This document shows positions 1,989-30,887 of a stretch of 30,887 nt of DNA, piece after piece. Within the stretch, counting starts at the first letter, position 1. Each line of letters opens with the position of its first letter. A model generated the notes under the pieces. It did not search any database. It saw only the letters and a list, made by a program, of their open reading frames with translations, and was not told the DNA's origin. Origin of the DNA: Escherichia coli. Its GTDB lineage: Bacteria > Pseudomonadota > Gammaproteobacteria > Enterobacterales > Enterobacteriaceae. Location: NCBI RefSeq assembly GCF_003334335.1, contig NZ_QOWQ01000049.1. The stretch is one strand, 5' to 3'. The translations under genes and the position numbers were made by a program.

Positions 1989-3278
1989 ATGAAAGTATTA
2001 GTGATTGGTAACGGCGGGCGCGAGCACGCGCTGGCCTGGAAAGCGGCCCAGTCGCCGCTGGTTGAGACTGTTTTTGTTGCTCCGGGTAATGCAGGCACTG
2101 CACTGGAACCCGCGCTGCAAAACGTTGCTATTGGCGTGACCGATATCCCGGCGCTGTTGGATTTCGCACAAAACGAAAAGATTGATCTGACCATCGTCGG
2201 CCCGGAAGCGCCGCTGGTGAAAGGCGTGGTCGATACCTTCCGCGCCGCCGGGCTGAAAATCTTCGGCCCAACCGCAGGTGCGGCCCAACTGGAAGGCTCA
2301 AAAGCGTTTACCAAAGATTTCCTGGCCCGCCATAAGATCCCTACGGCGGAATACCAGAACTTCACCGAGGTAGAACCTGCGCTGGCGTATCTGCGTGAGA
2401 AAGGCGCGCCAATCGTCATTAAAGCGGACGGTCTGGCTGCCGGGAAAGGCGTTATCGTGGCGATGACGCTGGAAGAAGCGGAAGCGGCTGTTCACGATAT
2501 GCTGGCGGGCAACGCTTTTGGCGACGCGGGTCATCGCATCGTTATCGAAGAGTTCCTCGATGGCGAAGAAGCGAGCTTTATCGTGATGGTGGACGGCGAG
2601 CATGTGCTGCCGATGGCTACCAGCCAGGATCACAAACGCGTAGGCGATAAAGATACCGGACCAAACACCGGCGGGATGGGCGCTTACTCCCCCGCGCCGG
2701 TAGTAACCGATGACGTTCATCAGCGCACCATGGAACGTATTATCTGGCCAACCGTGAAAGGCATGGCGGCGGAAGGCAACACCTACACCGGTTTTCTCTA
2801 CGCGGGCCTGATGATCGACAAACAGGGCAATCCGAAGGTTATTGAATTTAACTGCCGCTTTGGCGATCCGGAAACCCAGCCGATTATGCTGCGCATGAAG
2901 TCCGATCTGGTTGAGCTCTGCCTGGCGGCCTGTGAAAGCAAACTGGACGAGAAAACGTCCGAGTGGGATGAACGCGCTTCTCTCGGCGTGGTGATGGCTG
3001 CGGGTGGATATCCGGGTGATTACCGCACCGGTGACGTGATCCACGGCCTGCCGCTGGAAGAAGTGGCAGGCGGCAAAGTGTTCCACGCGGGCACAAAACT
3101 GGCGGATGACGAGCAGGTAGTGACCAACGGCGGGCGCGTACTGTGCGTCACCGCGCTGGGTCATACCGTGGCAGAAGCGCAGAAACGCGCCTATGCCTTA
3201 ATGACCGATATCCACTGGGACGACTGCTTCTGCCGGAAAGATATCGGCTGGCGCGCTATCGAACGCGAGCAGAACTAA
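1989..3278 (+). CDS. purD: Phosphoribosylamine-glycine ligase (GAR synthetase)
   Basis: 429-codon ORF starting 11 nt after the purH stop; ATP-grasp family translation typical of PurD. Confidence 0.97.
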   Translation: MKVLVIGNGGREHALAWKAAQSPLVETVFVAPGNAGTALEPALQNVAIGVTDIPALLDFAQNEKIDLTIVGPEAPLVKGVVDTFRAAGLKIFGPTAGAAQLEGSKAFTKDFLARHKIPTAEYQNFTEVEPALAYLREKGAPIVIKADGLAAGKGVIVAMTLEEAEAAVHDMLAGNAFGDAGHRIVIEEFLDGEEASFIVMVDGEHVLPMATSQDHKRVGDKDTGPNTGGMGAYSPAPVVTDDVHQRTMERIIWPTVKGMAAEGNTYTGFLYAGLMIDKQGNPKVIEFNCRFGDPETQPIMLRMKSDLVELCLAACESKLDEKTSEWDERASLGVVMAAGGYPGDYRTGDVIHGLPLEEVAGGKVFHAGTKLADDEQVVTNGGRVLCVTALGHTVAEAQKRAYALMTDIHWDDCFCRKDIGWRAIEREQN

Positions 3279-4600
3279 CGCGACAGTTTTGCCAATAGCG
3301 TTTTGCGCGTGATCCCTAACTGACGGGCGGCTTCGGTTTTGTTGCCGCCCGTTTTCTCCAGCGCCGCCAGAATCACCTCTTTTTCCACTTCCACCAACGG
3401 CTGAATATCCTGACTTTGTCCCAGCGGGATCGGCGTACTGGCAATCGCCAGCGGCAGCTCGCGTTCGGAAATATATTCCCCGGTCAGCAGCACCACTGCC
3501 CGTTCCACCGCGTTTTCCAGCTCACGAATATTTCCCGGCCAGTCGTAATGAATCAACAGATCCATCGCCTGGGGCGTAAAACCTTTTACCGCCTTGCGAT
3601 TACGCTCGGCAAAGCGCTGCAGAAAATGGCCAGCCAGCAGAGGGATATCTTCCCGCCGTTGCCGCAGCGATGGTACTTCAATCGCCACCACATTCAGGCG
3701 ATAGTAGAGATCCTGGCGAAAACGCCCGGCATTCACCTCTGCGGCAAGATCGCGATGGGTCGCCGCAATCAGCCGGACATCAACCGAGATAATCTGGTTG
3801 CTACCGACACGCTGAACTTCGCGCTCCTGAATCGCACGCAGCAGACGCACCTGCATCATCGGCGAGATATCGCCAATTTCATCGAGAAACAGCGTGCCGC
3901 CGTCCGCCTCAACAAAGCGCCCTTCCCGGCGTTTATCGGCTCCAGTAAACGCCCCTTTTTCGTGACCGAACAATTCAGATTCCAGCAAGGATTCGTTGAG
4001 TGCCGCACAGTTGAGCGTTACCAGCGGTTTTTCGCTACGTGCGCTACTGGCGTGAATCGCCCTGGCGACCAGCTCTTTACCGGTGCCGGAATCGCCGTGG
4101 ATCAGTACCGTGGCTTCCGATGGCGCGACGAGGGCGATTTCACTGAGCAGGTGTTGCATCGCCGGGCTTTTACCGACCATACCGAACTGGCTGGCAGTCA
4201 CCGCAGGTGTTTCAGCATCAATACTGTGCGTATGCGCGAGCGCTTTTTCCAGCGTCGCCTGTAGGTTATCGAAATCCAGCGGCTTGATGAGATAATCCAG
4301 CGCCCCAGTTTTCAGTGCCTCTACCGCCGTCTCGACGCTGGAGTACGCAGTCATAATCAGCACCGGAATTGCCGGGTTTAACGCTTTGATCTCTTTCAGC
4401 GTGGCGATGCCGTCCATCTCCGCCATTCGCACATCGCAAAGCACAAGATCAAAAACCTGTTCCCGCACCTGCTCCAACGCCTGTCGCCCGCTGTTCGCCA
4501 GCGCGACGTTATAGCCCCAGCCGCGCAGTAAAGCCTGCAAAATAGTGCAGTGGCTAATGTCATCATCCACCACCAGAATATCGATATTATCGTGCGTCAT
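3275..4600 (-). CDS. zraR: Sigma54-dependent response regulator (receiver domain, AAA+ sigma54-activator domain with GAFTGA motif, C-terminal HTH)
   Basis: 441-codon ORF; NtrC-family architecture with GDSGTGKE Walker A, GAFTGA and Fis-type HTH. ATGA start/stop overlap with the upstream kinase gene. Confidence 0.95.
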
Positions 4601-5994
4601 CCTTGTGGGTCCTTACGCGTAATATTGACCGGAAGCCAGAGGGTGAACGTTGAGCCTTTTCCCTCCTGGCTTGCGACCTGAATTGTACCACCGTGTTGTT
4701 CAACAATATTATGCACGACCGCCAGCCCCAATCCGGTGCCTTCGGCTTTAGTGGTGAAGTACGGAGTGAAGATGGCATCAAGCTGATCTGCCGCAATTCC
4801 CTTACCGCTGTCGGTAACGCTGATTTTCACGCCCGCGCCGCTTTCGCTGGCCGTCACGCTAATCACGCCATGCTGACCAATCGCCTGAATAGCATTGAGA
4901 TAGAGATTCAACAGGACCTGAGTCAGCCTGTCCGGGTCGGCCTGAATTTCCGGTAATGTGTCGTTGGCGGTAAAGCGTAACTGGATCTCCCGGCTGTTTG
5001 CATCCTGACTTACCAGCTGTAATGAGTGGTTAATCAGCGTGTTGAGATCCACCGCCTGCAAAGCCAGATGCGTTGGCTTAACCAGTTCCAGCAACTCGCT
5101 TACCACGCGGTTTAAACGGTCGGCCTCTTTCGCCATCACCTGCGCCAGTTGATGCGCTTCTCCCCCTGCAGGCGCGCGCTCGGCAAAGTATTTCGCCAGT
5201 CCTTTAATCGAGGAAAGTGGGTTACGGATTTCGTGGGCAACGCCTGCCGCAAGATGCCCCAGCGCCACCAGCTTCTCTTTGCGCTTCATTTCATCTTGTA
5301 GAAGCTGGCGCGAGCGCAGATAGCGGCGATACCAGAAGAATGACAATACGCTTGCCAGCAAGACCGTCGCCAGGGCGAAGAGGATAATCAGGGTATTGCG
5401 CTTTTCCCCACTCTGGGTTGCAACCAGATCACTGGCATCAACGGCGATAAAAATAGCCTGTTGTGCATCTACTTGTGGCACAGCTTTGCCGTTACAGCGC
5501 GGCATATTGTGCATTCCATGCCGCCAGGGCGCTGACATTGGCTGGAACAAACGATAGACCTCAAGTGCAGGCGTAGTTTCCGTTTTCCCAAGCAGCCGCC
5601 AGCGGGAGTTTTCCTCTGGCTTTAATTTCTGCATTTCATCCGGCGAATAGAGCGCACGCCCGACCTTATCGGGGTCGCTATGAAGAATAATGATGCCCTG
5701 CGCATCGGTGACTGCGAACCACAACACTCCCGGCTGTCCCGCCATCTCTTCCAGAAGCGCCTGTTGCTGTACATGGTGCATTCGCATCCCCATCCCTACG
5801 CGGCTTCCCGACTCCAGAGCGCGGATAAGCACATTACCTTTTTCCAGTAATGCCTGGCGGTCTGCCTCGCTTGCCCGCCCATAATCACGAATCACAGTTA
5901 CCGCAAACAATCCCACCAGCCCAACAATGACCACGGGGAGGATCGCGCTTAACCATTTAGCTAAGGAGTCTTTAGAACGTTGCATAAAACGCAT
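4597..5994 (-). CDS. zraS: Sensor histidine kinase of the ZraSR two-component system
   Basis: 465-codon ORF with N-terminal transmembrane segment, periplasmic domain, second TM, H-box (GVAHEIRNPL) and HATPase motifs; translationally coupled to zraR. Confidence 0.95.
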   Translation of the reverse strand: MRFMQRSKDSLAKWLSAILPVVIVGLVGLFAVTVIRDYGRASEADRQALLEKGNVLIRALESGSRVGMGMRMHHVQQQALLEEMAGQPGVLWFAVTDAQGIIILHSDPDKVGRALYSPDEMQKLKPEENSRWRLLGKTETTPALEVYRLFQPMSAPWRHGMHNMPRCNGKAVPQVDAQQAIFIAVDASDLVATQSGEKRNTLIILFALATVLLASVLSFFWYRRYLRSRQLLQDEMKRKEKLVALGHLAAGVAHEIRNPLSSIKGLAKYFAERAPAGGEAHQLAQVMAKEADRLNRVVSELLELVKPTHLALQAVDLNTLINHSLQLVSQDANSREIQLRFTANDTLPEIQADPDRLTQVLLNLYLNAIQAIGQHGVISVTASESGAGVKISVTDSGKGIAADQLDAIFTPYFTTKAEGTGLGLAVVHNIVEQHGGTIQVASQEGKGSTFTLWLPVNITRKDPQG

Positions 5995-6025
5995 CTTCTT
6001 CTTTGCCTGCTCATCCCTTTCTGAC

Positions 6026-6041
6026 AGCAGAAATCATGCCA
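6026..6041 (-). promoter_or_regulatory. Sigma54 -24/-12 promoter for zraSR
   Basis: Minus-strand sequence TGGCATGATTTCTGCT has GG and GC at the consensus spacing of TGGCAC-N5-TTGCW, about 30 nt upstream of the zraS ATG. Confidence 0.7.
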
Positions 6042-6092
6042 TCTTTTATCAGCGCTTACCCTGCGCTGTAACACAAAGGCTTAAGTTTCAAT

Positions 6093-6138
6093 GAGTAAAA
6101 ATGACTCGCTACCCGCAGCAGGCGAGTCATTTTTACTC
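6093..6138. promoter_or_regulatory. Enhancer for ZraR: two 17-bp sites GAGTAAAAATGACTCGC / GCGAGTCATTTTTACTC in inverted orientation, each containing a GAGT-N7-ACTC dyad
   Basis: Read directly. It sits between the two divergent sigma54 promoters, the expected position for a bacterial enhancer-binding-protein site. Confidence 0.7.
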
Positions 6139-6180
6139 GTTTATCATGCCAGATTACCCGTCATATCAGCGTTTCATCGT

Positions 6181-6196
6181 TGGCACGGAAGATGCA
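6181..6196 (+). promoter_or_regulatory. Sigma54 -24/-12 promoter for zraP
   Basis: TGGCACGGAAGATGCA matches TGGCAC-N5-TTGCA at the GG and GC positions, about 36 nt upstream of the zraP ATG; GGAGG Shine-Dalgarno at 6221..6225. Confidence 0.75.
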
Positions 6197-6231
6197 ATAC
6201 CCGAAGTAAGACAACCACTGGAGGATTAACC

Positions 6232-6657
6232 ATGAAACGGAACACGAAAATTGCCCTGGTAATGATGGCGCTTTCAGCAATGGCGATGGGATCGACATCT
6301 GCATTTGCTCACGGCGGACACGGTATGTGGCAGCAAAATGCCGCGCCTTTGACCAGCGAACAACAGACAGCGTGGCAGAAAATCCATAATGACTTTTACG
6401 CTCAAAGCAGCGCACTGCAACAGCAACTGGTGACGAAGCGTTATGAATACAATGCCCTGTTAGCCGCGAACCCACCGGATAGCAGCAAAATTAACGCGGT
6501 CGCCAAAGAGATGGAGAATTTGCGTCAGTCGTTAGATGAGTTACGGGTGAAACGAGATATCGCGATGGCTGAAGCGGGTATTCCGCGCGGAGCCGGAATG
6601 GGCATGGGCTACGGCGGCTGCGGTGGTGGCGGTCATATGGGTATGGGCCACTGGTAA
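6232..6657 (+). CDS. zraP: Periplasmic zinc-associated envelope-stress protein ZraP (signal peptide; Gly/Met/His-rich C-terminal tail)
   Basis: True start is the internal ATG at 6232 (MKRNTKIALVMMALSAMAMGSTSAFA signal peptide, GGAGG RBS). The 188-aa track ORF from 6091 runs through the promoter and enhancer and is an over-extension. Confidence 0.9.
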   Translation: MKRNTKIALVMMALSAMAMGSTSAFAHGGHGMWQQNAAPLTSEQQTAWQKIHNDFYAQSSALQQQLVTKRYEYNALLAANPPDSSKINAVAKEMENLRQSLDELRVKRDIAMAEAGIPRGAGMGMGYGGCGGGGHMGMGHW

Positions 6658-6658
6658 A

Positions 6659-7354
6659 TCAGAACGTTTTCTCGTTGGGTTGCCAGCGACAGAAATCAGA
6701 GTTTGCCACTAACAGTAATTGCGAACCTTCGGGCGCTTCCAGCCATGCCACGCTGACATCAACAGAAGAGCGGCTCTGGCGGCGCTCGATATGCGCTATC
6801 GCCTGCGAATCTAAATCAGGTTTAATGGTTTGCCCTTCGCAGGTGGTCACGGTCTGTTCCATCGCATGCCAGCGCCCCTGGCGCAGCACGACTCTCCCCT
6901 GACGTAAGGCATCGCTAATCTGGCGGATCTGATCAGCACGATAACGGTATAAATCGATTTGGTCGTTAGAAAGCTGCTGCTTTTCCCCATCGGATTCACG
7001 TTGCATAAAGCTCAGATCACCGCGATCGTCAAAACGCGCGCGAATATTCACCGGCGGTTTGCTGTAAACATTGATATTGATGAGCGTGAGGTTATCGCCC
7101 TGCCAGCGATACTCTCGCGTCGTGGTATCGCCACTGCGCCACGGGCTAAACACGGCAAGCAGATGCACATTATCGCCGCTGTCTTTTCGCCAGATGCGTA
7201 CCGCGCCCTGGTCTTCAGCAAATCCACTGGCGGTAAAGGGAGGAAGTGAAGAGTTATGACTACAGGCAGTGAGAAGCAGAGCGCCAGCCAGCATCAATGA
7301 TCGACGCCAGAAAGACAAAAGGGGTGAAACCACCCCTTCGTTAAAACTGTTCAC
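6659..7354 (-). CDS. yjaH: Putative lipoprotein YjaH (DUF1481 family)
   Basis: ORF with lipobox LLLTAC-S. The track ORF starts at a GTG at 7360; a second in-frame GTG at 7354 gives 231 aa and is the start I favour from recalled protein length. Start is uncertain by 2 codons. Confidence 0.75.
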   Translation of the reverse strand: MNSFNEGVVSPLLSFWRRSLMLAGALLLTACSHNSSLPPFTASGFAEDQGAVRIWRKDSGDNVHLLAVFSPWRSGDTTTREYRWQGDNLTLININVYSKPPVNIRARFDDRGDLSFMQRESDGEKQQLSNDQIDLYRYRADQIRQISDALRQGRVVLRQGRWHAMEQTVTTCEGQTIKPDLDSQAIAHIERRQSRSSVDVSVAWLEAPEGSQLLLVANSDFCRWQPNEKTF

Positions 7355-10243: not shown

Positions 10244-11017
10244 TCACTCATACTCTGCCCGACACATCGCCACCGTATCTTCTATCAGACGGCGCGCTAC
10301 GGTGCCGGGCGGCGGGAGTAACGGCAAATCGTCATAGCGATACCAGTTCGCCTCGAGCAATTCTTTCGGGTCGATCACGATGTCGCCGCTGTCATATTCC
10401 GCCATAAACGCGGTCATTAAAGACTGAGGAAACGGCCACGGCTGAGAAGTCACGTAACGCAAGTTTTTAACTTTAATTCCGCTCTCTTCCATCACTTCCC
10501 GCGCGACTGCCTGCTCGAGGGTTTCGCCCACTTCGACGAATCCGGCAAGTACTGTATGGACACCGTTACGATGGCGGGTATGCTGGGCGAGGAGGATCGA
10601 ATCATCGCGACGGATGGCAACAATAATGCAGGGGGCGATTTGCGGGTAGTAACGCTCACGGCAATGGCTGCACAGCATCGCCCATTCGGTTTTGCTCGGA
10701 TACATTTCATGCCCGCAGTAACCACAGTATTTATGCGATCGGTAAAACTCCGCCAGTTGTACGCCTCGTCCGGCCAGTTGAAACAGCCCAACATCGAGAT
10801 CAATGACCTGACGTACCGACCCCATATCGTGACGCCGCTGCTGTTGTACTAACCAAACAGGTTCCCCCTGCCATTCGCCGATTTGTAGTGCGCGCTGACC
10901 CACAAGATCGAAATTTGCCGCTTCGCCATATGGCAATTCTCCCTTCGGCAACCATAATTTTTGTTCATGGCTGACGACCCACCAGCCGTGATCTAATTTT
11001 TCAATTATACGATCCAT
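10244..11017 (-). CDS. nudC: NADH pyrophosphatase / RNA NAD-decapping Nudix hydrolase
   Basis: 257-codon ORF with zinc-ribbon cysteines (CGYCGHEM...CSHC) and a Nudix box ([22 protein letters not shown]). Confidence 0.95.
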
Positions 11018-11111
11018 AGCTCTTGCACTACCTTTGCATCACTGGCATGTTTAACATGGTTTTTACATTTCTCACTGAGCAGTTTTTGAATACAAACTTG
11101 CGGAGTCAATC

Positions 11112-11622: not shown

Positions 11623-11650
11623 GCCCCATTTGCGGGGCTAATTTCTTGTC
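11623..11650 (+). terminator. Intrinsic terminator downstream of rsd
   Basis: 5-bp GC stem GCCCC/GGGGC with ATTTGC loop, followed by the T-rich tract TAATTTCTTGTC. Confidence 0.6.
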
Positions 11651-11735
11651 GGAGTGCCTTAACTGGCTGAGACCGTTTATTCGGGATCCGCGGAACCTGA
11701 TCAGGCTAATACCTGCGAAGGGAACAAGAGTTAAT
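11651..11735 (+). promoter_or_regulatory. TPP riboswitch (THI element) in the thiC leader
   Basis: Contains the conserved thi-box core CTGAGA (11667..11672) and the downstream AACCTGATCAGGCTAATACCTGCGAAGGGAAC segment, about 90 nt upstream of the thiC ATG. Confidence 0.85.
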
Positions 11736-11817
11736 CTGCTATCGCATCGCCCCTGCGGCGATCGTCTCTTGCTTCATCCGTCGTCTGACAAGCCACGTCC
11801 TTAACTTTTTGGAATGA

Positions 11818-13715
<1,898 letters not shown>

Positions 13716-13716
<1 letters not shown>

Positions 13717-17185: not shown

Positions 17186-17439
17186 GACGGAATGTAAGAA
17201 CGTAAATTTATTCCGAGCCGCTACGGAAGATGAAAAACGCAAGGTTGTTGAAAGCGTTGTGTTTTTTTATGGTAGTGCCGTCAGCAGGAATGTTGTCCAG
17301 GGCGAAAAGCTTCTTCCTCGTTTCGCCCTGCCTTTCTTAAAAATTCCGTAATGCAAAGTCTGAAGCCATCGCCTGTTGAGCAATGAAAGAGATCTGATTG
17401 TAAGAGAGTAAATACTCAACTATGATAGAGACGAAAATA

Positions 17440-17601
17440 AGAACACATGTTCTCATCTTCCAGGATGCAGCAGACTGAAGAAATTCAGACATCCCGCAAC
17501 CTGCGATTATCGCAAGGTCAAGGCAAAGTCCGGTAATGGCGTTCTGAATACCAGAGATAATTCTCTGGCGAAACCCACCTTAAGGTGGGTTTTGTTATTT
17601 T
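17440..17601 (+). ncRNA. sroH: Candidate small RNA at the 3' end of the thi transcript region (position matches the sRNA sroH reported between thiH and htrC in E. coli K-12); 5' end not determinable from sequence
   Basis: Two consecutive hairpins (CCAGAGA-TAAT-TCTCTGG at 17551..17568, then AAACCCACC-TTAA-GGTGGGTTT at 17571..17592) followed by TTTTGTTATTTT; the 3' end is well defined. The 5' boundary and the identity are from memory of the K-12 locus. Confidence 0.4.
17571..17601 (+). terminator. Strong intrinsic terminator (9-bp perfect stem, TTAA loop, T-rich tail)
   Basis: AAACCCACC TTAA GGTGGGTTT followed by TGTTATTTT, read directly. It is a good terminator only on the plus strand; on the minus strand the hairpin is followed by CGCC. 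Confidence 0.8.
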
Positions 17602-18346: not shown

Positions 18347-21300
18347 TTACTCGTTATCAGAACCGCCCAGACCTGCGTTCAGCAGTTCTGCCAGGCTGGC
18401 AGATGCGTCTTCTGCAGTCACCTGCGGTGCAGCCGGAGCTTCACCCGCAGCACGGCGACGCATACGATCCTGGTGGTACGCGTAACCGGTACCTGCCGGG
18501 ATCAGACGACCCACGATAACGTTCTCTTTCAGGCCGCGCAGTTCGTCGCGTTTGCCCGCAACGGCTGCTTCGGTCAGCACGCGAGTGGTCTCCTGGAACG
18601 ATGCCGCGGAGATGAAGGACTCGGTTGCCAGAGACGCTTTGGTGATACCCAGCAGATCGCGGGAGTAAGTTGCACCCACTTTGCCGTTCGCTTCCAGTTC
18701 GCGGTTTGCGATCTTGACGCGAGAGTATTCAACCTGTTCGCCTTCCAGGAAGTCGGAGCTACCCGCGTTAACGATGGTAGCTTTACGCAGCATCTGACGA
18801 ACGATAACTTCGATGTGTTTATCGTTAATCTTAACGCCCTGCAGACGGTATACGTCCTGTACTTCGTTAACGATGTAACGAGTAACAGCATGAACACCAC
18901 GCAGACGCAGAATGTCGTGCGGCGCTTCCGGACCGTCGGAAATTACGTCACCACGTTCTACACGTTCACCTTCGAACACGTTGAGCTGACGCCATTTCGG
19001 AATCATCTCTTCGTACGGATCGCTACCGTCTACCGGGGTGATAACCAGACGACGTTTACCTTTGGTTTCTTTACCGAAGGAAACGATACCGCTGATTTCA
19101 GCCAGGATTGCCGGCTCTTTCGGACGACGTGCTTCGAACAGGTCCGCAACGCGCGGCAGACCACCGGTGATGTCCTTGGTACCGCCGGATTCCTGCGGAA
19201 TACGCGCCAGGGTGTCACCAGAGCTGATCTGTACGCCATCTTCCAGCTGAACAATCGCTTTACCCGGCAGGAAGTACTGCGCTGGCATATCGGTACCTGG
19301 GATCAGAACGTCGTTACCCTGAGCATCAACGATTTTCAGTGCCGGACGCAGATCTTTACCACCTGCGGTACGTTCTGCGGAATCCAGAACCACCAGCGAA
19401 GACAGACCGGTCAGTTCGTCGGTCTGACGCGTAATGGTCTGGCCGTCGATCATGTCAGTAAAGCGTACAAAACCGCTTACTTCGGTGATAACCGGCATGG
19501 TGTGCGGGTCCCAGTTTGCAACGGTTTCGCCGCCAGCAACCTGTTCGCCATCGCCTTTCGCCAGTACCGCACCGTAAGGTACTTTGTAGCTTTCTTTAGT
19601 ACGACCGAATTCGTCGATCAGTTTCAGTTCAGTATTACGGGAAGTGATAACCAGTTTACCGCTGGAGTTCACAACCGACTTCACGTTGCTGAGCTTGATG
19701 CTACCTTTGTTTTTCACTTGGATGCTGGATTCAGCAGCCGCACGAGATGCCGCACCACCGATGTGGAACGTACGCATGGTCAGCTGTGTACCCGGTTCAC
19801 CGATGGACTGTGCCGCGATAACACCGATTGCTTCACCCTTGTTGATGATGTGGCCACGCGCCAGGTCACGACCGTAGCAGTGCGCACATACACCAAAGTC
19901 GGTGTCACAAGATACAACAGAACGTACTTTAACCGCGTCGACAGAGTTCTCTTCCAGCAGGTCACACCACTGTTCGTGCAGCAGCGTGTTGCGCGGAACG
20001 AGGATATCAGCAGTACCCGGCTTCAGAACGTCTTCAGCAGTTACACGACCCAGTACGCGATCGCGCAGCGGCTCTTTAACGTCACCACCCTCGATAACCG
20101 GAGTCATCATGATACCTTCATGGGTACCACAATCGTCTTCGGTAACCACCAGGTCCTGCGCCACGTCAACCAGACGACGAGTCAGGTAACCGGAGTTCGC
20201 AGTTTTCAGTGCGGTATCCGCCAGACCTTTACGAGCACCGTGGGTGGAGATGAAGTACTGGAGTACGTTCAGACCTTCACGGAAGTTCGCGGTGATTGGC
20301 GTTTCGATGATGGAGCCATCCGGCTTCGCCATCAGACCACGCATACCAGCAAGCTGACGAATCTGTGCCGCAGAACCACGCGCACCGGAGTCGGCCATCA
20401 TGTAGATGCTGTTGAAGGAAACCTGCTTCTCTTCCTGACCGTCACGGTTAATCACGGTTTCAGTTTGCAGGTTATCCATCATCGCTTTGGATACACGATC
20501 GTTCGCCGCAGCCCAGATATCGATAACTTTGTTGTAGCGTTCGCCCGCAGTTACCAGACCAGACTGGAACTGCTCCTGAATTTCAGCAACTTCTGCTTCT
20601 GCCTCGGAGATGATTTCGTGTTTCTTCTCCGGGATGACCATGTCATCGATACCAACAGATGCACCAGAACGCGCTGCATAGGCGAAGCCGGTGTACATGA
20701 TCTGGTCCGCAAAAATAACGGTCGGTTTCAGACCGAGAATGCGGTAGCAGGTGTTCAGCATTTTGGAGATTGCTTTTTTACCCAGCGCCTGGTTGACGAT
20801 GGAGTAAGGCAGACCTTTCGGTACAATCATCCACAGAATGGCACGGCCAACAGTCGTGTCTTTCAGGCTGGTTTTCGCTACTAATTCACCGTTAGCATCT
20901 TTTTCATACTCGGTGATACGCACTTTAACGCGCGCATGCAGAGAAGCCAGACCAGAGCGATACAGACGTTCTGCTTCTTTCGGGCCAGTCAGCACCATGC
21001 CTTCGCCTTTGGCGTTAACACAGTCACGGGTCATGTAGTACAGACCCAGTACAACGTCCTGAGACGGAACGATGATTGGTTCGCCGTTCGCCGGGGACAG
21101 GATGTTGTTGGTAGACATCATCAGCGCACGCGCTTCCAGCTGGGCTTCCAGCGTCAGCGGTACGTGAACAGCCATCTGGTCACCATCGAAGTCGGCGTTA
21201 TATGCCGCACAAACCAGCGGGTGCAGCTGGATAGCTTTACCTTCGATCAGTACCGGTTCAAATGCCTGGATACCCAGACGGTGCAGAGTCGGTGCACGGT

Positions 21301-22570
21301 TCAGCAGTACCGGGTGTTCGCGGATAACTTCGTCCAGGATATCCCAAACGACAGCTTCTTCGCGCTCAACCATTTTCTTCGCAGCTTTAATGGTGGTAGC
21401 AAGACCACGCAGTTCCAGCTTGCCGTAGATGAACGGTTTGAACAGCTCCAGTGCCATTTTCTTCGGCAGACCGCACTGATGCAGACGCAGGTATGGACCT
21501 ACGGTGATTACAGAACGACCGGAGTAGTCAACACGCTTACCGAGCAGGTTCTGACGGAAACGACCCTGTTTACCTTTGATCATGTCGGCCAAAGATTTCA
21601 GAGGACGCTTGTTAGAACCGGTGATCGCACGACCGCGACGACCGTTATCCAGCAGGGCGTCTACCGCTTCCTGCAGCATACGTTTTTCGTTACGTACGAT
21701 GATGTCCGGCGCAGCCAGATCCAGCAGACGTTTCAGACGGTTGTTACGGTTAATGACGCGACGATACAGATCGTTCAGGTCAGAAGTCGCGAAACGACCA
21801 CCATCCAGCGGAACCAGCGGACGCAGATCTGGCGGCAGTACCGGCAGAACGGTCAGGATCATCCACTCTGGTTTGTTACCAGACTGAACGAACGCTTCCA
21901 GCAGTTTGATACGCTTGGTCAGCTTTTTACGCTTGGTTTCGGAGTTGGTTTCGTTCAGCTCTTCACGCAGCTGTTCGCACTCTTGCTCCAGATCCATGCT
22001 CTTCAGCAGAGCCTGGATTGCTTCCGCCCCCATCTTCGCGTCGAATTCGTCACCGAACTCTTCCAGCGCGTCCAGATACTGCTCTTCAGTCAGGATCTGC
22101 TGACGTTCCAGGTTGGTCATACCGCCTTCGATAACCACATAGGATTCAAAGTACAGTACGCGTTCGATATCGCGCAGCGGCATATCGAGCAGCAGACCGA
22201 TACGGGACGGCAGCGATTTCAGGAACCAGATGTGCGCAGTCGGGGAAGCCAGTTCGATGTGGCCCATACGCTCACGGCGTACTTTAGTCTGGGTCACTTC
22301 AACGCCGCACTTCTCACAGATGACGCCACGGTGTTTCAGGCGCTTGTACTTACCGCACAGGCACTCGTAATCTTTTACCGGCCCAAAGATACGGGCGCAG
22401 AAAAGGCCGTCACGTTCTGGTTTGAACGTACGGTAGTTGATGGTTTCCGGCTTTTTAACTTCACCGAAAGACCATGAACGGATCATGTCTGGCGAAGCCA
22501 GAGCAATTTTGATCGCATCAAACTCTTCGGTTTTAGTCTGCGCTTTCAGAAACTTTAATAAATCTTTCAC
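18347..22570 (-). CDS. rpoC: DNA-directed RNA polymerase subunit beta'
   Basis: 1407-codon ORF with GTG start and GGGAG Shine-Dalgarno; N-terminal zinc-binding cysteines and the NADFDGD catalytic motif are present. Confidence 0.98.
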
Positions 22571-22646
22571 GGATTTGCTCCCGTCGGAGTTAGCACAATC
22601 CGCTGCCGGGTTTTAACCCGACAGCAGTGACCTGTTTGAGCGAGAA

Positions 22647-25600
22647 TTACTCGTCTTCCAGTTCGATGTTGATACCCAGCGAACGAATCTCTTTCAACAA
22701 TACGTTGAAGGATTCTGGCATGCCCGGCTCCATCTGATGGTTGCCGTCCACGATGTTTTTATACATCTTGGTACGACCGTTCACGTCATCAGACTTAACG
22801 GTGAGCATTTCCTGCAGGGTGTATGCTGCGCCGTATGCTTCCAGCGCCCACACTTCCATCTCCCCGAAACGCTGACCACCGAACTGTGCCTTACCACCCA
22901 GCGGCTGCTGAGTAACCAGGCTGTAAGAACCGGTGGAACGCGCGTGCATCTTGTCGTCGACCAGGTGGTTCAGTTTCAGCATGTACATGTAACCAACGGT
23001 TACCGGACGCTCGAACTGTTCACCAGTGCGACCATCGTACAGGCGGATCTGACCGGAAGTCGGCAGGTCGCCAAGTTTCAGCAGCTCTTTAATTTCTGCT
23101 TCTTTCGCACCGTCGAACACCGGCGTTGCGATTGGCATACCTTTGCGCAGGTTTTCAGCCAGACGCATAACTTCTTCATCGCTGAAGGTACTCAGGTCAA
23201 CTTTCTGACGAACGTCAGCGCCCAGATCGTACGCACGCTGGATGAATTCGCGCAGTTTCGCGACTTCTTGCTGCTGTTTCAGCATGGCGTTGATCTTGTC
23301 GCCGATACCTTTCGCAGCCATACCCAGGTGGGTTTCGAGGATCTGACCGATGTTCATACGAGACGGTACGCCCAGCGGGTTCAGTACGATGTCTACCGGC
23401 GTACCGTTTTCATCGTAAGGCATATCTTCGATCGGGTTGATCTTAGAAATTACACCCTTGTTACCGTGACGACCTGCCATCTTGTCACCAGGCTGGATAC
23501 GGCGTTTAACCGCCAGATATACCTTAACAATCTTCAGCACGCCCGGTGCCAGATCGTCGCCCTGGGTGATTTTGCGGCGTTTCGCTTCGAGTTTCTTCTC
23601 GAACTCGTGTTTCAGTTCGTCATACTGCTCAGCCAGCTGTTCCAGCTGATTTTGTTTCTCTTCGTCTGTCAGGCCCAGCTCCAGCCAGCGATCGCGCGGC
23701 AGTTTGTCGAGCTTCTCAGCTTCAACGCCACCGGCTACCAGCACAGCACGGATACGGCTGAACAGACCCGCTTCGAGGATCTGCAGTTCTTCAGACAGGT
23801 CTTTCTTCGCCTGTTTGAGCTGCATTTCTTCGATTTCCAGCGCACGTTTGTCTTTTTCTACGCCATCGCGAGTAAAGACCTGAACGTCGATAACCGTACC
23901 GGATACACCGTTTGGTACGCGCAGAGAAGAGTCTTTAACGTCAGAGGCTTTCTCACCGAAGATCGCACGCAGCAGTTTTTCTTCTGGGGTCAGCTGAGTT
24001 TCACCTTTCGGCGTTACCTTACCAACCAGAATGTCGCCACCGGTCACTTCCGCACCAATGTAAACGATACCGGATTCATCCAGTTTGGAGAGCGCAGCTT
24101 CACCCACGTTCGGGATGTCAGCGGTGATCTCTTCCGGACCCAGCTTGGTGTCACGGGACACACACGCCAGTTCCTGAATGTGGATGGTGGTGAAACGGTC
24201 TTCCTGAACAACACGCTCGGATACGAGGATGGAGTCTTCGAAGTTGTAACCATTCCACGGCATGAACGCTACGCGCATGTTCTGACCAAGCGCCAGTTCA
24301 CCGAGGTCGGTGGACGGACCGTCTGCCAGCACGTCGCCACGTTCAACCGGTTCACCCAGAGACACACACGGCATCTGGTTGATACAGGTGTTCTGGTTAG
24401 AACGGGTGTATTTGGTCAGGTTGTAGATGTCGATACCTGCTTCACCCGGATACATCTCGTCTTCGTTAACTTTGATAACGATACGGGAAGCATCCACGTA
24501 CTGAACGACACCACCACGTTTAGCTACCGCAGTTACACCGGAGTCAACGGCAACAGCACGTTCCATACCAGTACCAACCAGCGGCTTATCAGCGCGCAGA
24601 GTCGGAACGGCCTGACGTTGCATGTTCGCACCCATCAATGCACGGTTGGCGTCATCGTGTTCCAGGAACGGGATCAGGGACGCACCGACGGATACCACCT
24701 GCTGGGTGGATACGTCCATGTAGTCAACCTGGTCGCGGCTGAACAAGCTGGATTCGCCTTTGCTACGGCAAGTTACCAGGTCTTCTACGAAGTGGCCTTC
24801 TTCATCCAAGTTGGAGTTCGCCTGGGCGATAACGTAGTTGCCTTCTTCGATAGCAGACAGGTAGTGAATTTCGTCAGTTACAACACCGTCGGTCACTTTA
24901 CGATACGGAGTCTCAAGGAAGCCGTATTCGTTAGTCTGTGCGTACACGGACAGAGAGTTGATCAGACCGATGTTCGGACCTTCAGGGGTTTCGATTGGAC
25001 ATACGCGACCGTAGTGAGTCGGGTGTACGTCTCGAACTTCGAAGCCTGCACGTTCACGGGTCAGACCGCCTGGGCCGAGTGCGGAGATACGACGTTTGTG
25101 CGTAATCTCAGACAGCGGGTTGTTCTGGTCCATAAACTGAGACAGCTGGCTGGAACCGAAGAACTCTTTCACTGCTGCGGAAATCGGCTTGGCGTTGATC
25201 ATATCCTGTGGCATCAGGGTATCCAGATCGCCCAGAGACAGACGCTCTTTCACCGCACGCTCTACACGTACCAGGCCAACGCGGAACTGGTTTTCCGCCA
25301 TTTCGCCAACGGAACGGATACGACGGTTGCCGAGGTGGTCGATATCATCGACTTCGCCTTTACCGTTACGGATATCGATGAGCTTTTTCATAACATCAAT
25401 GATGTCGTCTTTGCTCAGGATACCGGAACCTTCGATTTCTTCGCGCAGCAGAGAACGGTTGAACTTCATACGACCAACCGCAGACAAGTCATAACGGTCT
25501 TCGGAGAAGAACAGGTTCTCGAACAGGCTTTCAGCTGCTTCACGAGTCGGCGGCTCGCCAGGGCGCATCATGCGGTAGATTTCTACCAGTGCGCTCAGAC

Positions 25601-26675
25601 GGTCGTTAGTTGGGTCGACACGTAAGGTTTCAGAGATATATGGGCCGTGATCCAGATCGTTGGTGAACAGCGTTTCGATACGCTTGTGACCAGACTGGCT
25701 CAGCTTAGCCAGCAGATCCAGGCTCAGCTCCATGTTCGCTGCGCAGATCAGCTCGCCGGTAGACTCATCAATATAGTCTTTAGCAACCACTTTACCTGCG
25801 ATGTACTCAACCGGGACTTCGATCAGTTTGACGTCGTCTTTTTCCAGCTGGCGAATGTGGCGCGCAGTGATACGGCGGCCTTTTTCTACGTACACTTTAC
25901 CGTTAGCTTCGATGTCAAAAGATGCGGTTTCACCACGCAGGCGTTCCGGCACCAGTTCCATCTGCAGCTTGTTATCACGGATTTCAAAGATAACTTTTTC
26001 AAAGAACAGGTCGAGGATCTGCTCTGTGGTGTAGTTCAGGGCGCGCAGAATGATGGTCGCAGGCAGTTTACGGCGACGGTCGATACGTACGAACAGGTTG
26101 TCCTTCGGATCGAATTCGAAGTCCAGCCAGGAACCACGGTAAGGGATGATACGCGCGTTATACAGCACTTTACCCGAAGAGTGGGTTTTACCTTTGTCGG
26201 AGTCAAAGAAGACGCCCGGACTACGGTGCAGCTGGGAAACGATAACACGCTCAGTACCGTTGATAACAAAGGTACCGTTGTCTGTCATGAGCGGAATTTC
26301 GCCCATGTAGACTTCTTGTTCTTTAATGTCTTTTACGGTGCCTTCCGGCGCTTCGCGCTCATAGATCACCAGACGCAGTTTAACGCGCAGCGGTGCGGAA
26401 TAGGTCACGCCACGGATTTGACATTCCTGGACGTCAAACACCGGTTCGCCAAGGCGGTAGCTGACGTATTGCAGCTCGGAATTACCGCTGTAGCTCTGAA
26501 TCGGGAATACGGAACGGAAAGCAGCTTCCAGACCATACTGCCCTTCAGGATCTTGCTCGATAAATTTCTGAAACGAGTCAAGCTGGATAGAAAGGAGATA
26601 AGGTACATCCAGAACTTGTGGACGTTTACCAAAATCCTTACGAATACGTTTTTTCTCGGTATAGGAGTAAACCAT
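22647..26675 (-). CDS. rpoB: DNA-directed RNA polymerase subunit beta
   Basis: 1342 aa from the ATG at 26675 ([20 protein letters not shown]...), preceded by a GGAG motif. The track ORF carries 11 extra upstream codons that are not part of the gene. Confidence 0.98.
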
Positions 26676-26920
26676 AGGGTTCCTCAGCTCGCTGACAAGT
26701 CGACCCATCTGTCCATTGAGCGGACAGTTTGTGCAACACTATTTTGTTGACCGGAAAATGGAACACTTTCCGCAATGCCTGTTGCTATCACGCTTAAACC
26801 ATTTCATTGCGATTTACACAGAACGGACGTCCTGTCGCAGTATATTAAGTCGTCGATAGAAACAAGCATTGAAAGGCACAGCAGTAGTCAAACAGTGTGA
26901 AACGCTACTGGCGCCTTACA

Positions 26921-26954
26921 GCGCAAAAAGGCTGGTGACTAAAAAGTCACCAGC
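26921..26954 (-). terminator. rplL-rpoB intergenic attenuator (partial terminator)
   Basis: Perfect 9-bp inverted repeat GCTGGTGAC-TAAAAA-GTCACCAGC (26931..26954) which on the minus strand is followed by CUUUUUGCGCU; lies 41 to 64 nt downstream of the rplL stop. Confidence 0.75.
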
Positions 26955-26994
26955 CATCAGCCTGATTTCTCAGGCTGCAACCGGAAGGGTTGGC

Positions 26995-27360
<366 letters not shown>

Positions 27361-27426
27361 TTAAATTGTTCCTGAATATCAGAATAAGTTTATACGTAAG
27401 CGAATGCGTTAAAAAGATAACTGCGA

Positions 27427-27924
27427 TTAAGCAGCTTCTTTCGCATCGCGTACAGCAGCCAGAGTACGAACCAGTTTGCCAGCCGAAGCTTCTTTCATGG
27501 TTGCCATCAGGCGTGCAATTGCTTCTTCGTAGGTCGGCAGAGTTGCCAGGCGGTCGATCTGAGACGCCGGGATCAGCTCACCTTCAAAGGCAGCGGCTTT
27601 GACCTCAAATTTTGCATTCGCTTTCGCGAACTCTTTGAACAGACGAGCAGCAGCGCCCGGGTGTTCCATAGAGTATGCAATCAGGGTCGGACCAACAAAC
27701 GCGTCTTTCAGGCACTCGAACGGAGTACCTTCAACAGCACGGCGCAGCAGGGTGTTACGAACAACACGCATGTATACGCCAGCTTCGCGACCTGCTTTAC
27801 GCAGTTCAGTCATTTTATCTACAGTTACGCCACGGGAATCCGCAACTACTGCAGACAGCGCGCCTTTGGCTACTTCGCTGACTTCAGCAACAATCGCTTG
27901 TTTGTCTTGAAGATTTAAAGCCAT
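27427..27924 (-). CDS. rplJ: 50S ribosomal protein L10
   Basis: 165-aa translation [49 protein letters not shown]... is L10. Confidence 0.98.
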
Positions 27925-28336
27925 TAGCTTTGCTCCTGGATGTTTGCCAGAGAAAATCTCTGGAACTCACTTCACTCCTCCAAACGGAGAGAGCGTCTTA
28001 ATTACGGTGAGCAGAAACAAGCCAGAATATAAAAGAATAATCTTAGCGTTCTGTCACCGTCTACGCAGGGGATTAAGTTTCTTGCGAAACTCCTGCGGTC
28101 TTCGACGGAGGCCTGGATAGGCCAGGCTCCAACGAACAAATCTTTTCTATCCGTCGCTATTCTGCTTGTGACGGCGTTGGCTTCCTTCATTCGCACCAGT
28201 CACATAGTTAGCTATGCTCCTGGCGACTCACTCAGTTGCCGCCTTGCCACAACCCGAATATCTCGGATATACGTCTGCATTAAGCATTATACGTGGGGGT
28301 AAGATTGTAGACAAAATCACCGCCCACGTAAAGGCA
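27925..28336 (-). promoter_or_regulatory. Long untranslated rplJ leader / rplA-rplJ intergenic region (expected to hold the rplJL promoter and the L10-(L12)4 autoregulatory site)
   Basis: 412-bp non-coding gap in an otherwise compact operon. The regulatory function is from established knowledge of the E. coli rplJL leader; I cannot place the exact sites from sequence. Confidence 0.6.
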
Positions 28337-29536
<1,200 letters not shown>

Positions 29537-29631
29537 TTACGGGCAAGGCCCATAAAAACAAAAGGCGCGAAATTGTATTCCAATCTCACGCCTTGTGCAA
29601 CGATTAAATCGCCGCTTTTTTGATCGCTGGG

Positions 29632-30177
29632 TTAGGCTTTTTCAACCTGGCTGAAGTCCAGCTCTACCGGGGTCGCACGACCGAAGATAGAAACAGACAC
29701 TTTCAGACGAGATTTCTCGTAATCCACTTCTTCAACAACACCGTTGAAGTCAGCGAACGGACCATCATTAACACGGACCATTTCACCCGGTTCAAACAGC
29801 GTTTTCGGACGCGGCTTATCACCAACCTGCTGCAGGCGGTTCATAATCGCATCGACTTCTTTATCGCTGATTGGCGCAGGACGATCGGAAGTACCGCCGA
29901 TGAAGCCCATCACACGCGGTACGCTGCGCACCAGGTGCCAGCTCGCGTCGTTCATCACCATCTGAACGAGGACGTAGCCAGGGAAGAATTTACGTTCGCT
30001 TTTGCGACGCTGACCGCCACGGATTTCAACCACTTCTTCGGTTGGTACCATGACTTCACCAAACAAATCTTCCATGTTGTGTAATTTGATATGCTCACGC
30101 AGCGACGTTGCTACGCGGCCTTCAAAACCGGAAAACGCCTGAACGACGTACCAGCGCTTTTTAGGAGCTTCAGACAT
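29632..30177 (-). CDS. nusG: Transcription termination/antitermination factor NusG
   Basis: 181-aa translation [59 protein letters not shown]... with NGN and KOW regions. Confidence 0.98.
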
Positions 30178-30178
30178 C

Positions 30179-30562
30179 TCAGAACCTCAGGCCAGTGATA
30201 AAGGATACCAGGCGAACCAGAATACCATCCAGTCCCCACAGGATCAGTGACATTACTGCGGTAACCGCAGCCACAATCAGCGTGGTGTGCAATGTTTCCT
30301 GGCGAGTCGGCCAAATGACCTTACGGACTTCGGTACGCGCTTCACGGGCAAAAGCAACGGTAGCTTTACCTTTTGTCGTTAACAGCGCGACACCACCCGC
30401 TGCAGCAATCAGAATTACTACGGCCAGCGCACGCAGCGGCAGCATAATGTCGCGATAAAGATAGTTGCCGACAATCGCCACCAGGAGCAATGCCACCACA
30501 ACGACCCACTTCATCGCTTCCAGGCCGCGCCCGCTTCCTTGAGCTTCGGTATTCGCACTCAT
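30179..30562 (-). CDS. secE: Protein translocase subunit SecE
   Basis: 127-aa three-TM protein ([36 protein letters not shown]...); 1-nt gap to nusG. Confidence 0.97.
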
Positions 30563-30734
30563 AAACCAACCTGTCAGAAGTTTTCTACAAACATTTTCAC
30601 CCCGCGATCGCGAGGCAAACCAAATCGAAACGCGTATTAGCTTTTCGGATTATACGCCCTCAACAGAGCCTGTCTCAGCAATGATTATGACAAAGAAAAT
30701 CACTGATGAGCCAAGTTCTGGTACGAAAGCGTGC

Positions 30735-30761
30735 AAAAAGGGCATCAAATGATGCCCTTTT
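30735..30761 (-). terminator. tufB intrinsic terminator
   Basis: AAAAA GGGCATC AAAT GATGCCC TTTT: 7-bp perfect stem flanked by A and T runs, about 30 nt downstream of the tufB stop. Confidence 0.85.
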
Positions 30762-30791
30762 AGTGCGCATTGCGTCAAATGTTATCGGCAA

Positions 30792-30887
<96 letters not shown>

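Follow-up and report, generated by a model that had tools for sequence, protein, structure and literature searches.

The zraS–zraP spacer of Escherichia coli as a ZraPSR regulatory region with divergent sigma-54 promoters and a shared ZraR enhancer

The NtrC enhancer of glnAp2 consists of two dyad sites, each about 17 bp long and spaced, from centre to centre, by about three helical turns. It is located upstream of the sigma-54 promoter, where NtrC activates by oligomerisation and looping, and with sites at approximately −108 and −140 it serves this one promoter. At norR-norVW, sigma-54 dependence is known for norVW only. ZraPSR is an envelope-stress and zinc-responsive system, and its regulatory region is the 237-bp spacer between zraS and zraP. 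The abstract of Leonhartsberger et al. 2001 reportedly describes the binding of HydG to inverted repeats with a 14-bp spacer between them. The zraP-zraSR promoter already serves as a zinc and lead biosensor. Both zra promoters carry the EcoCyc status 'P' (predicted) in a 2015 ChIP-seq table (PMC4591121), and a 2016 review on Salmonella gives the consensus of the ZraR enhancer as 'NK' (not known).

We analyzed a stretch of 30,887 nucleotides from E. coli (the window) that contains this spacer. A reading of the raw letters, made beforehand and called here the sequence-only reading, had proposed that zraSR and zraP are transcribed from divergent sigma-54 promoters on either side of a shared enhancer, and that the response regulator encoded next to it acts there on both units. 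Below we compare this proposal with gene models, motif statistics, orthologous loci and published binding data.

Genes around the zraS–zraP spacer

The DNA of the window is that of E. coli K-12. Positions 20000-30887 are 100% identical to the K-12 derivative ER1709, and the spacer is 100% identical to records annotated zraP/zraS, that is, to the locus of E. coli K-12 formerly called yjaI-hydHG. The ORF map gives the gene order purD-zraR-zraS/zraP-yjaH-hupA, followed by yjaG, nfi, hemE and nudC; the order from purD to hupA is conserved. The genes up to zraP are:

1989-3278, plus strand: purD (ORF list)
3275..4600, minus strand: zraR, sigma-54-dependent response regulator of the NtrC family (ORF list, NCBIfam equivalog)
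4597..5994, minus strand: zraS, sensor histidine kinase, leading the zraSR operon (ORF list, NCBIfam equivalog)
6232..6657, plus strand: zraP, periplasmic chaperone of the Spy/CpxP family and feedback partner of ZraS (NCBIfam equivalog NF008584)

The identities of zraS, zraR and zraP had been assigned without database searches. We could confirm all three, since each protein passes the cut-off of an NCBIfam equivalog model: ZraR scores 994.8 bits on NF007689 (cut-off 760), ZraS 841.6 bits on NF007688 (cut-off 479) and ZraP 274.4 bits on NF008584 (cut-off 200). Residues 141-441 of ZraR match the structure deposited as 'ZraR' (PDB 1OJL, E = 2.7e-177), and GAFTGA is readable in the translation. 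The orthologues of ZraR contain the Pfam domains Response_reg, Sigma54_activat and HTH_8, and the homologues of ZraP match PF13801.

The spacer between zraS and zraP measures 237 bp. Together with its flanks it is annotated zraP/zraS in 5,421 of 5,426 complete E. coli genomes, and five of the 5,426 contain no match to it at all. In the complete genome of E. coli WS0115A (NZ_CP035882.1 3872049-3872816) a deletion takes the 5' part of zraS along with the entire regulatory spacer, so that 17 bp remain between zraP and a truncated zraS pseudogene.

As the start codon of zraP we accept ATG 6232 and reject the in-frame ATG at 6091. One public gene model describes a 186-residue 'ZraP' that begins at ATG 6091, two bases 5' of the left enhancer site (site L, see below), and a second model of 183 residues begins at an ATG within this site. 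On the opposite side of the spacer, a Salmonella record (L011:850-2436) calls ZraS as a protein of 528 residues that spans most of the spacer. The zra locus warns of gene models that begin within regulatory DNA.

Elsewhere in the window, three matches exceed the Rfam gathering score: a TPP riboswitch at 11640-11740 (+), ahead of a 631-aa ORF (11821-13716), the sroH sRNA at 17433-17593 (+), and a match to the 'P26' family at 26929-26990 (−), just upstream of rpoB.

Promoter and enhancer elements within the spacer

The elements that we distinguish between the two start codons are listed here with the evidence for each.

6026..6042, minus strand: zraS sigma-54 promoter, 17-mer ATGGCATGATTTCTGCT (weight matrix, ChIP-seq motif OS39, conservation)
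6056..6086, no strand: moderately conserved stretch TTACCCTG ... ACACAAAG from the zraS promoter to the enhancer (alignment A1, columns 66-88; ungapped 16-taxon comparison)
6093..6109, plus strand: enhancer site L, GAGTAAAAATGACTCGC, with core 6093-6107, GAGTAA-AAA-TGACTC (repeat, conservation)
6110..6121, no strand: 12-bp spacer between the 17-mers, TACCCGCAGCAG (sequence free, length clade-dependent)
6122..6138, minus strand: enhancer site R, the same 17-mer, with core 6124-6138 (repeat, conservation)
6180..6196, plus strand: zraP sigma-54 promoter, 17-mer TTGGCACGGAAGATGCA (weight matrix, ChIP-seq motif OS38, conservation)
6220..6225, plus strand: zraP ribosome-binding site GGAGGA (sequence; kept as GGAG/GAGG in alignment A1)

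On the zraS side, TGGCATGATTTCTGCT is read along the minus strand from 6041 to 6026, with GG at 6040-6039 and GC at 6028-6027. On the zraP side, TGGCACGGAAGATGCA occupies 6181-6196 of the plus strand, with GG at 6182-6183 and GC at 6194-6195. Both motifs share the one spacer and face away from each other, and their ends are 35 or 31 bp short of the start codon that each precedes. The −24/−12 elements had been placed at 6026..6041 on the minus and 6181..6196 on the plus strand, and these coordinates are exact. Both motifs fit the strict pattern TGGCAY-N6-TGCW without mismatch, and they are one and two bases off the full consensus.

To judge the significance of these motifs we scanned the entire window. 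A loose pattern (TGGCAC-N5-TTGCW with up to two mismatches) proved uninformative, as it produced 22 matches where 19.3 are expected. Therefore, we used the strict pattern and a weight matrix instead. The strict pattern occurs three times against an expectation of 0.36, and three occurrences were reached in 1 of 100 shuffles. The matrix was derived from 40 independent ChIP-supported intergenic sigma-54 sites (table in PMC4591121) with both zra sites excluded, and the training sites themselves score between 9.1 and 21.9 bits (median 15.7). Across all positions and both strands of the window, the zraS motif ranks first (17.9 bits) and the zraP motif second (15.5 bits), so that a weight-matrix scan, which the sequence-only reading had named as a check, singles out precisely these two sites. 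Two scores of this height anywhere in a random window were obtained in 4.3% of simulations. In the region 5800-6800 we found no sigma-70-like promoter (1.0 expected), the type of site that had been named as evidence against the proposal, and published data, discussed below, show rpoN dependence. A search of the same region for terminator-like sites also returned none.

The third strict match, TGGCACCGGGCGTGCT at 23536-23551 (−), was rejected as a promoter: it lies within rpoB in sense direction, scores less than 9.9 bits on the matrix and coincides with no high-stringency sigma-54 ChIP-seq peak. The next-best matrix matches in the window are found at 30677-30693 (−), 11022-11038 (+) and 10614-10630 (+), with scores of 13.5-14.6 bits. 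None of the three carries a high-stringency ChIP-seq peak, and the GG dinucleotide is absent from the first two.

Transcription start sites were set by the rule '19 bp from motif centre' (PMC4591121). By this rule, zraS is predicted to start near 6015, with a leader of 21 nt to the ATG at 5994, and zraP near 6207, with a leader of 25 nt. We also noted a 12-nt inverted repeat with 92% complementarity (6170-6181 / 6228-6239) around the zraP promoter and start codon. Chance is the probable origin of this repeat, given that its left arm precedes the predicted start and that conservation is lacking here.

Between the two promoters, GAGTAAAAATGACTCGC occurs at 6093-6109 on the plus strand and again at 6122-6138 on the minus strand, forming an element of 46 bp. 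This 17-mer is expected 0.08 times in the window, and two occurrences were reached in none of 100 shuffles. In K-12 the arms pair at 17 of 17 positions, or at 19 of 20 when extended as in the repeat search, which widens them to 20 nt with 95% complementarity (6090-6109 / 6122-6141). The two inverted 17-bp sites that had been described for 6093..6138 are thus present and 12 bp apart, but the conserved unit within each of them is 15 bp long. This unit, GRGTAA-AAA-TGACYC, is a near-palindrome with the half-sites GAGTAA and GAGTCA, which are one base apart; judged from its symmetry, it would suit one ZraR dimer per site. The 14-bp spacing of Leonhartsberger et al. 2001 would presumably fit arms of 16 bp (6093-6108 / 6123-6138), and the division into 17 + 12 + 17 bp and the 15-bp cores are the same palindrome of the K-12 locus drawn differently.

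The centres of the two cores are 31 bp apart in E. coli, in mirror-image arrangement and separated by about three helical turns. Measured from the predicted starts, they fall at approximately −76 and −107 for zraP and at approximately −85 and −116 for zraS. At least two dyad-symmetric sites about 70-150 bp upstream of a promoter, the arrangement by which we define an enhancer, are therefore in place. We searched the DNA on both sides of the enhancer, up to each promoter, for an IHF-like site (WATCAANNNNTTR with up to one mismatch) that could assist looping across these short distances, and found none. Directly after site R, at 6143-6151, the −24 half of the zraS promoter, ATCATGCCA, recurs without mismatch (minus-strand TGGCATGAT); this copy lacks a −12 partner, and its conservation does not extend beyond E. 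coli.

Conservation and geometry across genera

Orthologous spacers were collected by a genome scan for ZraP, from named ZraP homologues and by scanning metagenomes for the enhancer core, GTAAAAATGAC-N16-24-GTCATTTTTAC. Alignment A1 contains 12 sequences, one per taxon, from six genera, in which conservation is limited to the two promoters, the two 15-bp cores and the ribosome-binding region. Over these 12 taxa, mean column identity amounts to 0.96 for the zraS promoter (13 of 17 columns invariant), 0.95 for the core of site L (12 of 15), 0.98 for the core of site R (14 of 15) and 0.95 for the zraP promoter; the flanks and the inner 16 bp range from 0.56 to 0.66, with 0.64 for the inner 16 bp. 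Variation of the cores across genera is confined to position 2 (A/G) and position 14 (T/C). These two positions show no strict covariation, as the combinations A/T, G/C, G/T and A/C all occur. The innermost two bases of each 17-mer differ among species. This cross-genus conservation settles that the promoters and the enhancer cores are selected elements, and the comparative data define the ZraR site more cleanly, as GRGTAA-AAA-TGACYC.

The same architecture is retained in Escherichia, Salmonella, Citrobacter, Kosakonia, Pluralibacter, Kluyvera and Klebsiella. In the metagenome scan, enhancer-type matches adjoin a zraP-like or zraS-like gene in 79 of 80 cases, and nearly all of these show both. 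The one exception (L044:120-340, JGI contig Ga0207913_1000646) is situated just 3' of an unrelated NtrC-family two-component pair. The response regulator of this pair is 37% identical to ZraR, and zraP is absent. The element comprises sites of the GAGTAAAAATGAC type with a 12-bp gap as in E. coli, plus a third site, GGGTCAAAATGACCC, and a possible sigma-54 promoter, TGGCTCGGGTTTTGTA, follows about 110 bp downstream. Beyond this promoter is a gene whose product resembles SulP-type transporters at its N-terminus. Another system may thus share a DNA specificity similar to that of ZraR.

A separate group of 45 matches from human-gut metagenomes with a 24-bp gap (L015, L016 and 43 others) was rejected as an unrelated palindrome without the G.G...C.C flanks. 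These contigs contain the long perfect palindrome TGTAAAAATGACGAAAAAAAACGATCGTTTCTTTTCGTCATTTTTACA (e.g., L016:2978-3023), which shares an 11-nt core by chance.

We also rejected the idea that the inter-site spacer is invariably 12 bp long, since the metagenome scan revealed spacers of 13 and 14 bp too. The gap between the 17-mers measures 13-14 bp in Klebsiella and Kluyvera, and its sequence varies even within Escherichia. In Escherichia, Salmonella, Citrobacter, Kosakonia and Pluralibacter, 31 bp separate the centres of the two cores. The corresponding distance is 32 bp in Kluyvera and the Klebsiella oxytoca group, whereas K. pneumoniae, K. variicola and K. aerogenes have 33 bp. All three distances are near three helical turns.

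Across the seven genera, 75-76 bp separate the centre of the palindrome from the GG of the zraS promoter at every locus except one (L116, 66 bp). This locus stems from a Citrobacter-like metagenome contig, and its zraS-side distance, 9 bp shorter than elsewhere, could be a real variant or an assembly error. On the other side, the distance to the GG of the zraP promoter is 77-80.5 bp outside Escherichia, a drift of about 3.5 bp, and 67 bp in most Escherichia species (about 66 bp in E. albertii). This shortfall corresponds to an 11-bp gap in A1 columns 182-192. Because the longer form is found in all outgroups, the difference would most simply be explained by a deletion of about one helical turn in the Escherichia lineage. 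The fact that such a loss keeps the helical phase is suggestive but no proof, since other genera tolerate 1-3 bp of drift there.

These distances raise the possibility, which we put forward as a doubtful one, that the geometry of the shared enhancer is unevenly constrained, tight on the zraS side and looser on the zraP side, and this may be an undescribed property. If true, such uneven geometry would point to IHF-free, helix-face-dependent looping that is stricter on the autoregulatory side, and one activator ring might choose between two promoters. The natural spacing variants (12, 13 and 14 bp between the sites; the loss of 11 bp in Escherichia) could guide experiments with one enhancer and two promoters.

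ZraPSR control and comparison with known systems

Published data locate both sigma-54 and ZraR at this spacer. The sigma-54 ChIP-seq motifs OS38 and OS39 are exactly TTGGCACGGAAGATGCA at zraP and ATGGCATGATTTCTGCT at zraS, with occupancy scores of 39 and 9, respectively (PMC4591121). Reconstituted sigma-54 holoenzyme produces a gSELEX peak on the zraP/zraS spacer in vitro, and zraP and zraS are both rpoN-dependent in arrays, in a study that lists the same promoter sequences (PMC2831329). The orthologous motifs of Salmonella bind sigma-54 by ChIP-chip; with a promiscuous activator, zraP increases 16-fold and hydHG 3.7-fold in a sigma-54-dependent manner (PMC3844500). The Salmonella zraS motif, TGGCATGATCTCTGCT, is that of locus L011. 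As to ZraR, 81 of 86 gSELEX clones contained the zraP/zraS spacer, which identifies it as the single high-affinity target (PMC8249747), and ChIP-exo peaks were observed upstream of zraSR and of zraP (PMC7657598); both methods place ZraR at the level of the spacer only. Under zinc, knockout of zraR lowers the expression of zraS by 3.18 log2 units (PMC7657598). These reports agree with the earlier assignment of zraSR and zraP to divergent sigma-54 promoters and with the accompanying claim that the response regulator autoregulates and drives zraP.

The difference in occupancy (9 at zraS vs 39 at zraP) could also mean that the enhancer serves zraP alone, with the zraS motif as a bystander sigma-54 site and zraSR expressed from another promoter. 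The absence of zraS from the ZraR iModulon (PMC7657598) and the many non-productive sigma-54 sites in E. coli (PMC4591121) would be compatible with such a situation, as would the requirement of any two-component system for some basal expression. However, the putative bystander is the top sigma-54 match in the window, is conserved with a column identity of 0.96 across six genera, and keeps its distance from the enhancer within 1 bp at all loci save one. Moreover, zraS depends on rpoN and on zraR in the experiments cited above, hydHG responds in Salmonella, and the region 5800-6800 is free of sigma-70-like promoters. We consider a zraS motif without function in zraSR expression very unlikely.

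Still less credible is the idea that the 46-bp palindrome acts as a cruciform, RNA hairpin or terminator instead of as a pair of protein-binding sites. The fully complementary arms in K-12 would allow for such a structure, but the element lies upstream of both predicted starts and would therefore be transcribed from neither promoter. The terminator search was negative, and the spacer contains no Rfam match. The loop length shifts from 12 to 14 bp between taxa, and the substitutions in the arms are non-compensatory (e.g., GGGTAAAAATGACCCGG on the left and GAGTAAAAATGACTCGC on the right in C. amalonaticus), which speaks for recognition by a protein and against a hairpin. What is conserved is the sequence and not the pairing, and ZraR binds the zraP/zraS spacer.

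Recognition of the repeats by a different regulator such as CpxR, suggested by the GTAAA in each enhancer site and by the overlap of Cpx and Zra stress responses described in papers, is just as improbable, because in CpxR boxes GTAAA is repeated directly with a spacing of 5 bp, the two GTAAA here are inverted and about 30 bp apart, and the element accompanies zraS/zraR at every enterobacterial locus found. In addition, gSELEX with ZraR picks the zraP/zraS spacer almost exclusively (PMC8249747).

The elements and their conservation are documented here, and the cited papers document that sigma-54 occupies the promoters, that ZraR binds the spacer and that expression depends on rpoN and zraR. We estimate a probability of about 95% that the spacer is the ZraPSR regulatory region, in which divergent sigma-54 promoters share a ZraR enhancer that operates by the AAA+ ring mechanism. 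In the following arrangement, we infer which bases ZraR contacts, in what stoichiometry it binds, that the DNA loops and where exactly transcription starts. Sigma-54 RNA polymerase would wait as a closed complex at the zraSR and zraP promoters, and two ZraR dimers would occupy the mirrored 15-mers, one each. Phosphorylation of ZraR by ZraS would allow the bound dimers to form an active AAA+ ring, probably together with a further dimer from solution. This ring would loop about 75-115 bp of DNA to reach either promoter and would spend ATP on opening. A single enhancer would thus provide positive autoregulation of zraSR as well as strong induction of zraP, and ZraP in turn dampens ZraS.

The sequence-only reading had described this control region as established biology, and rightly so, as the zraP-zraSR locus is already known. 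Mildly new are the cross-genus geometry and the refined binding site. The region is a textbook-grade sigma-54 two-component circuit and has little weight as a discovery. Its value is that of a positive control, since both promoters and the enhancer were correctly identified from the raw sequence.

Compared with E. coli K-12 zraP-zraSR, the locus has the same divergent sigma-54 promoters and the same binding of ZraR (HydG), with no substantive difference. NtrC at glnAp2 belongs to the same activator family, and ZraR scores 458 bits on the NtrC model, which is below the cut-off. The ZraR enhancer differs from that of glnA in that it is placed between two promoters, is nearer to them (at the distances given above) and has a different recognition sequence. 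NorR at norR-norVW resembles ZraR by acting on a divergent pair with the activator gene beside the target and through multiple short dyads (GT-N7-AC for NorR), and by being a single-target regulator in gSELEX (PMC8249747). Unlike ZraR, NorR is not a two-component response regulator, and it requires three sites, according to a passage in PMC2831303. Besides zraP/zraS, E. coli has one more pair of sigma-54 promoters placed back to back, that of hycA and hypA, controlled by FhlA, with motifs OS27 and OS28 at a distance of 128 bp compared to 154 bp for zraP/zraS (PMC4591121). In contrast to ZraR, FhlA does not belong to the response regulators, has its gene elsewhere and recognizes the site CATTTCGTACGAAATG.
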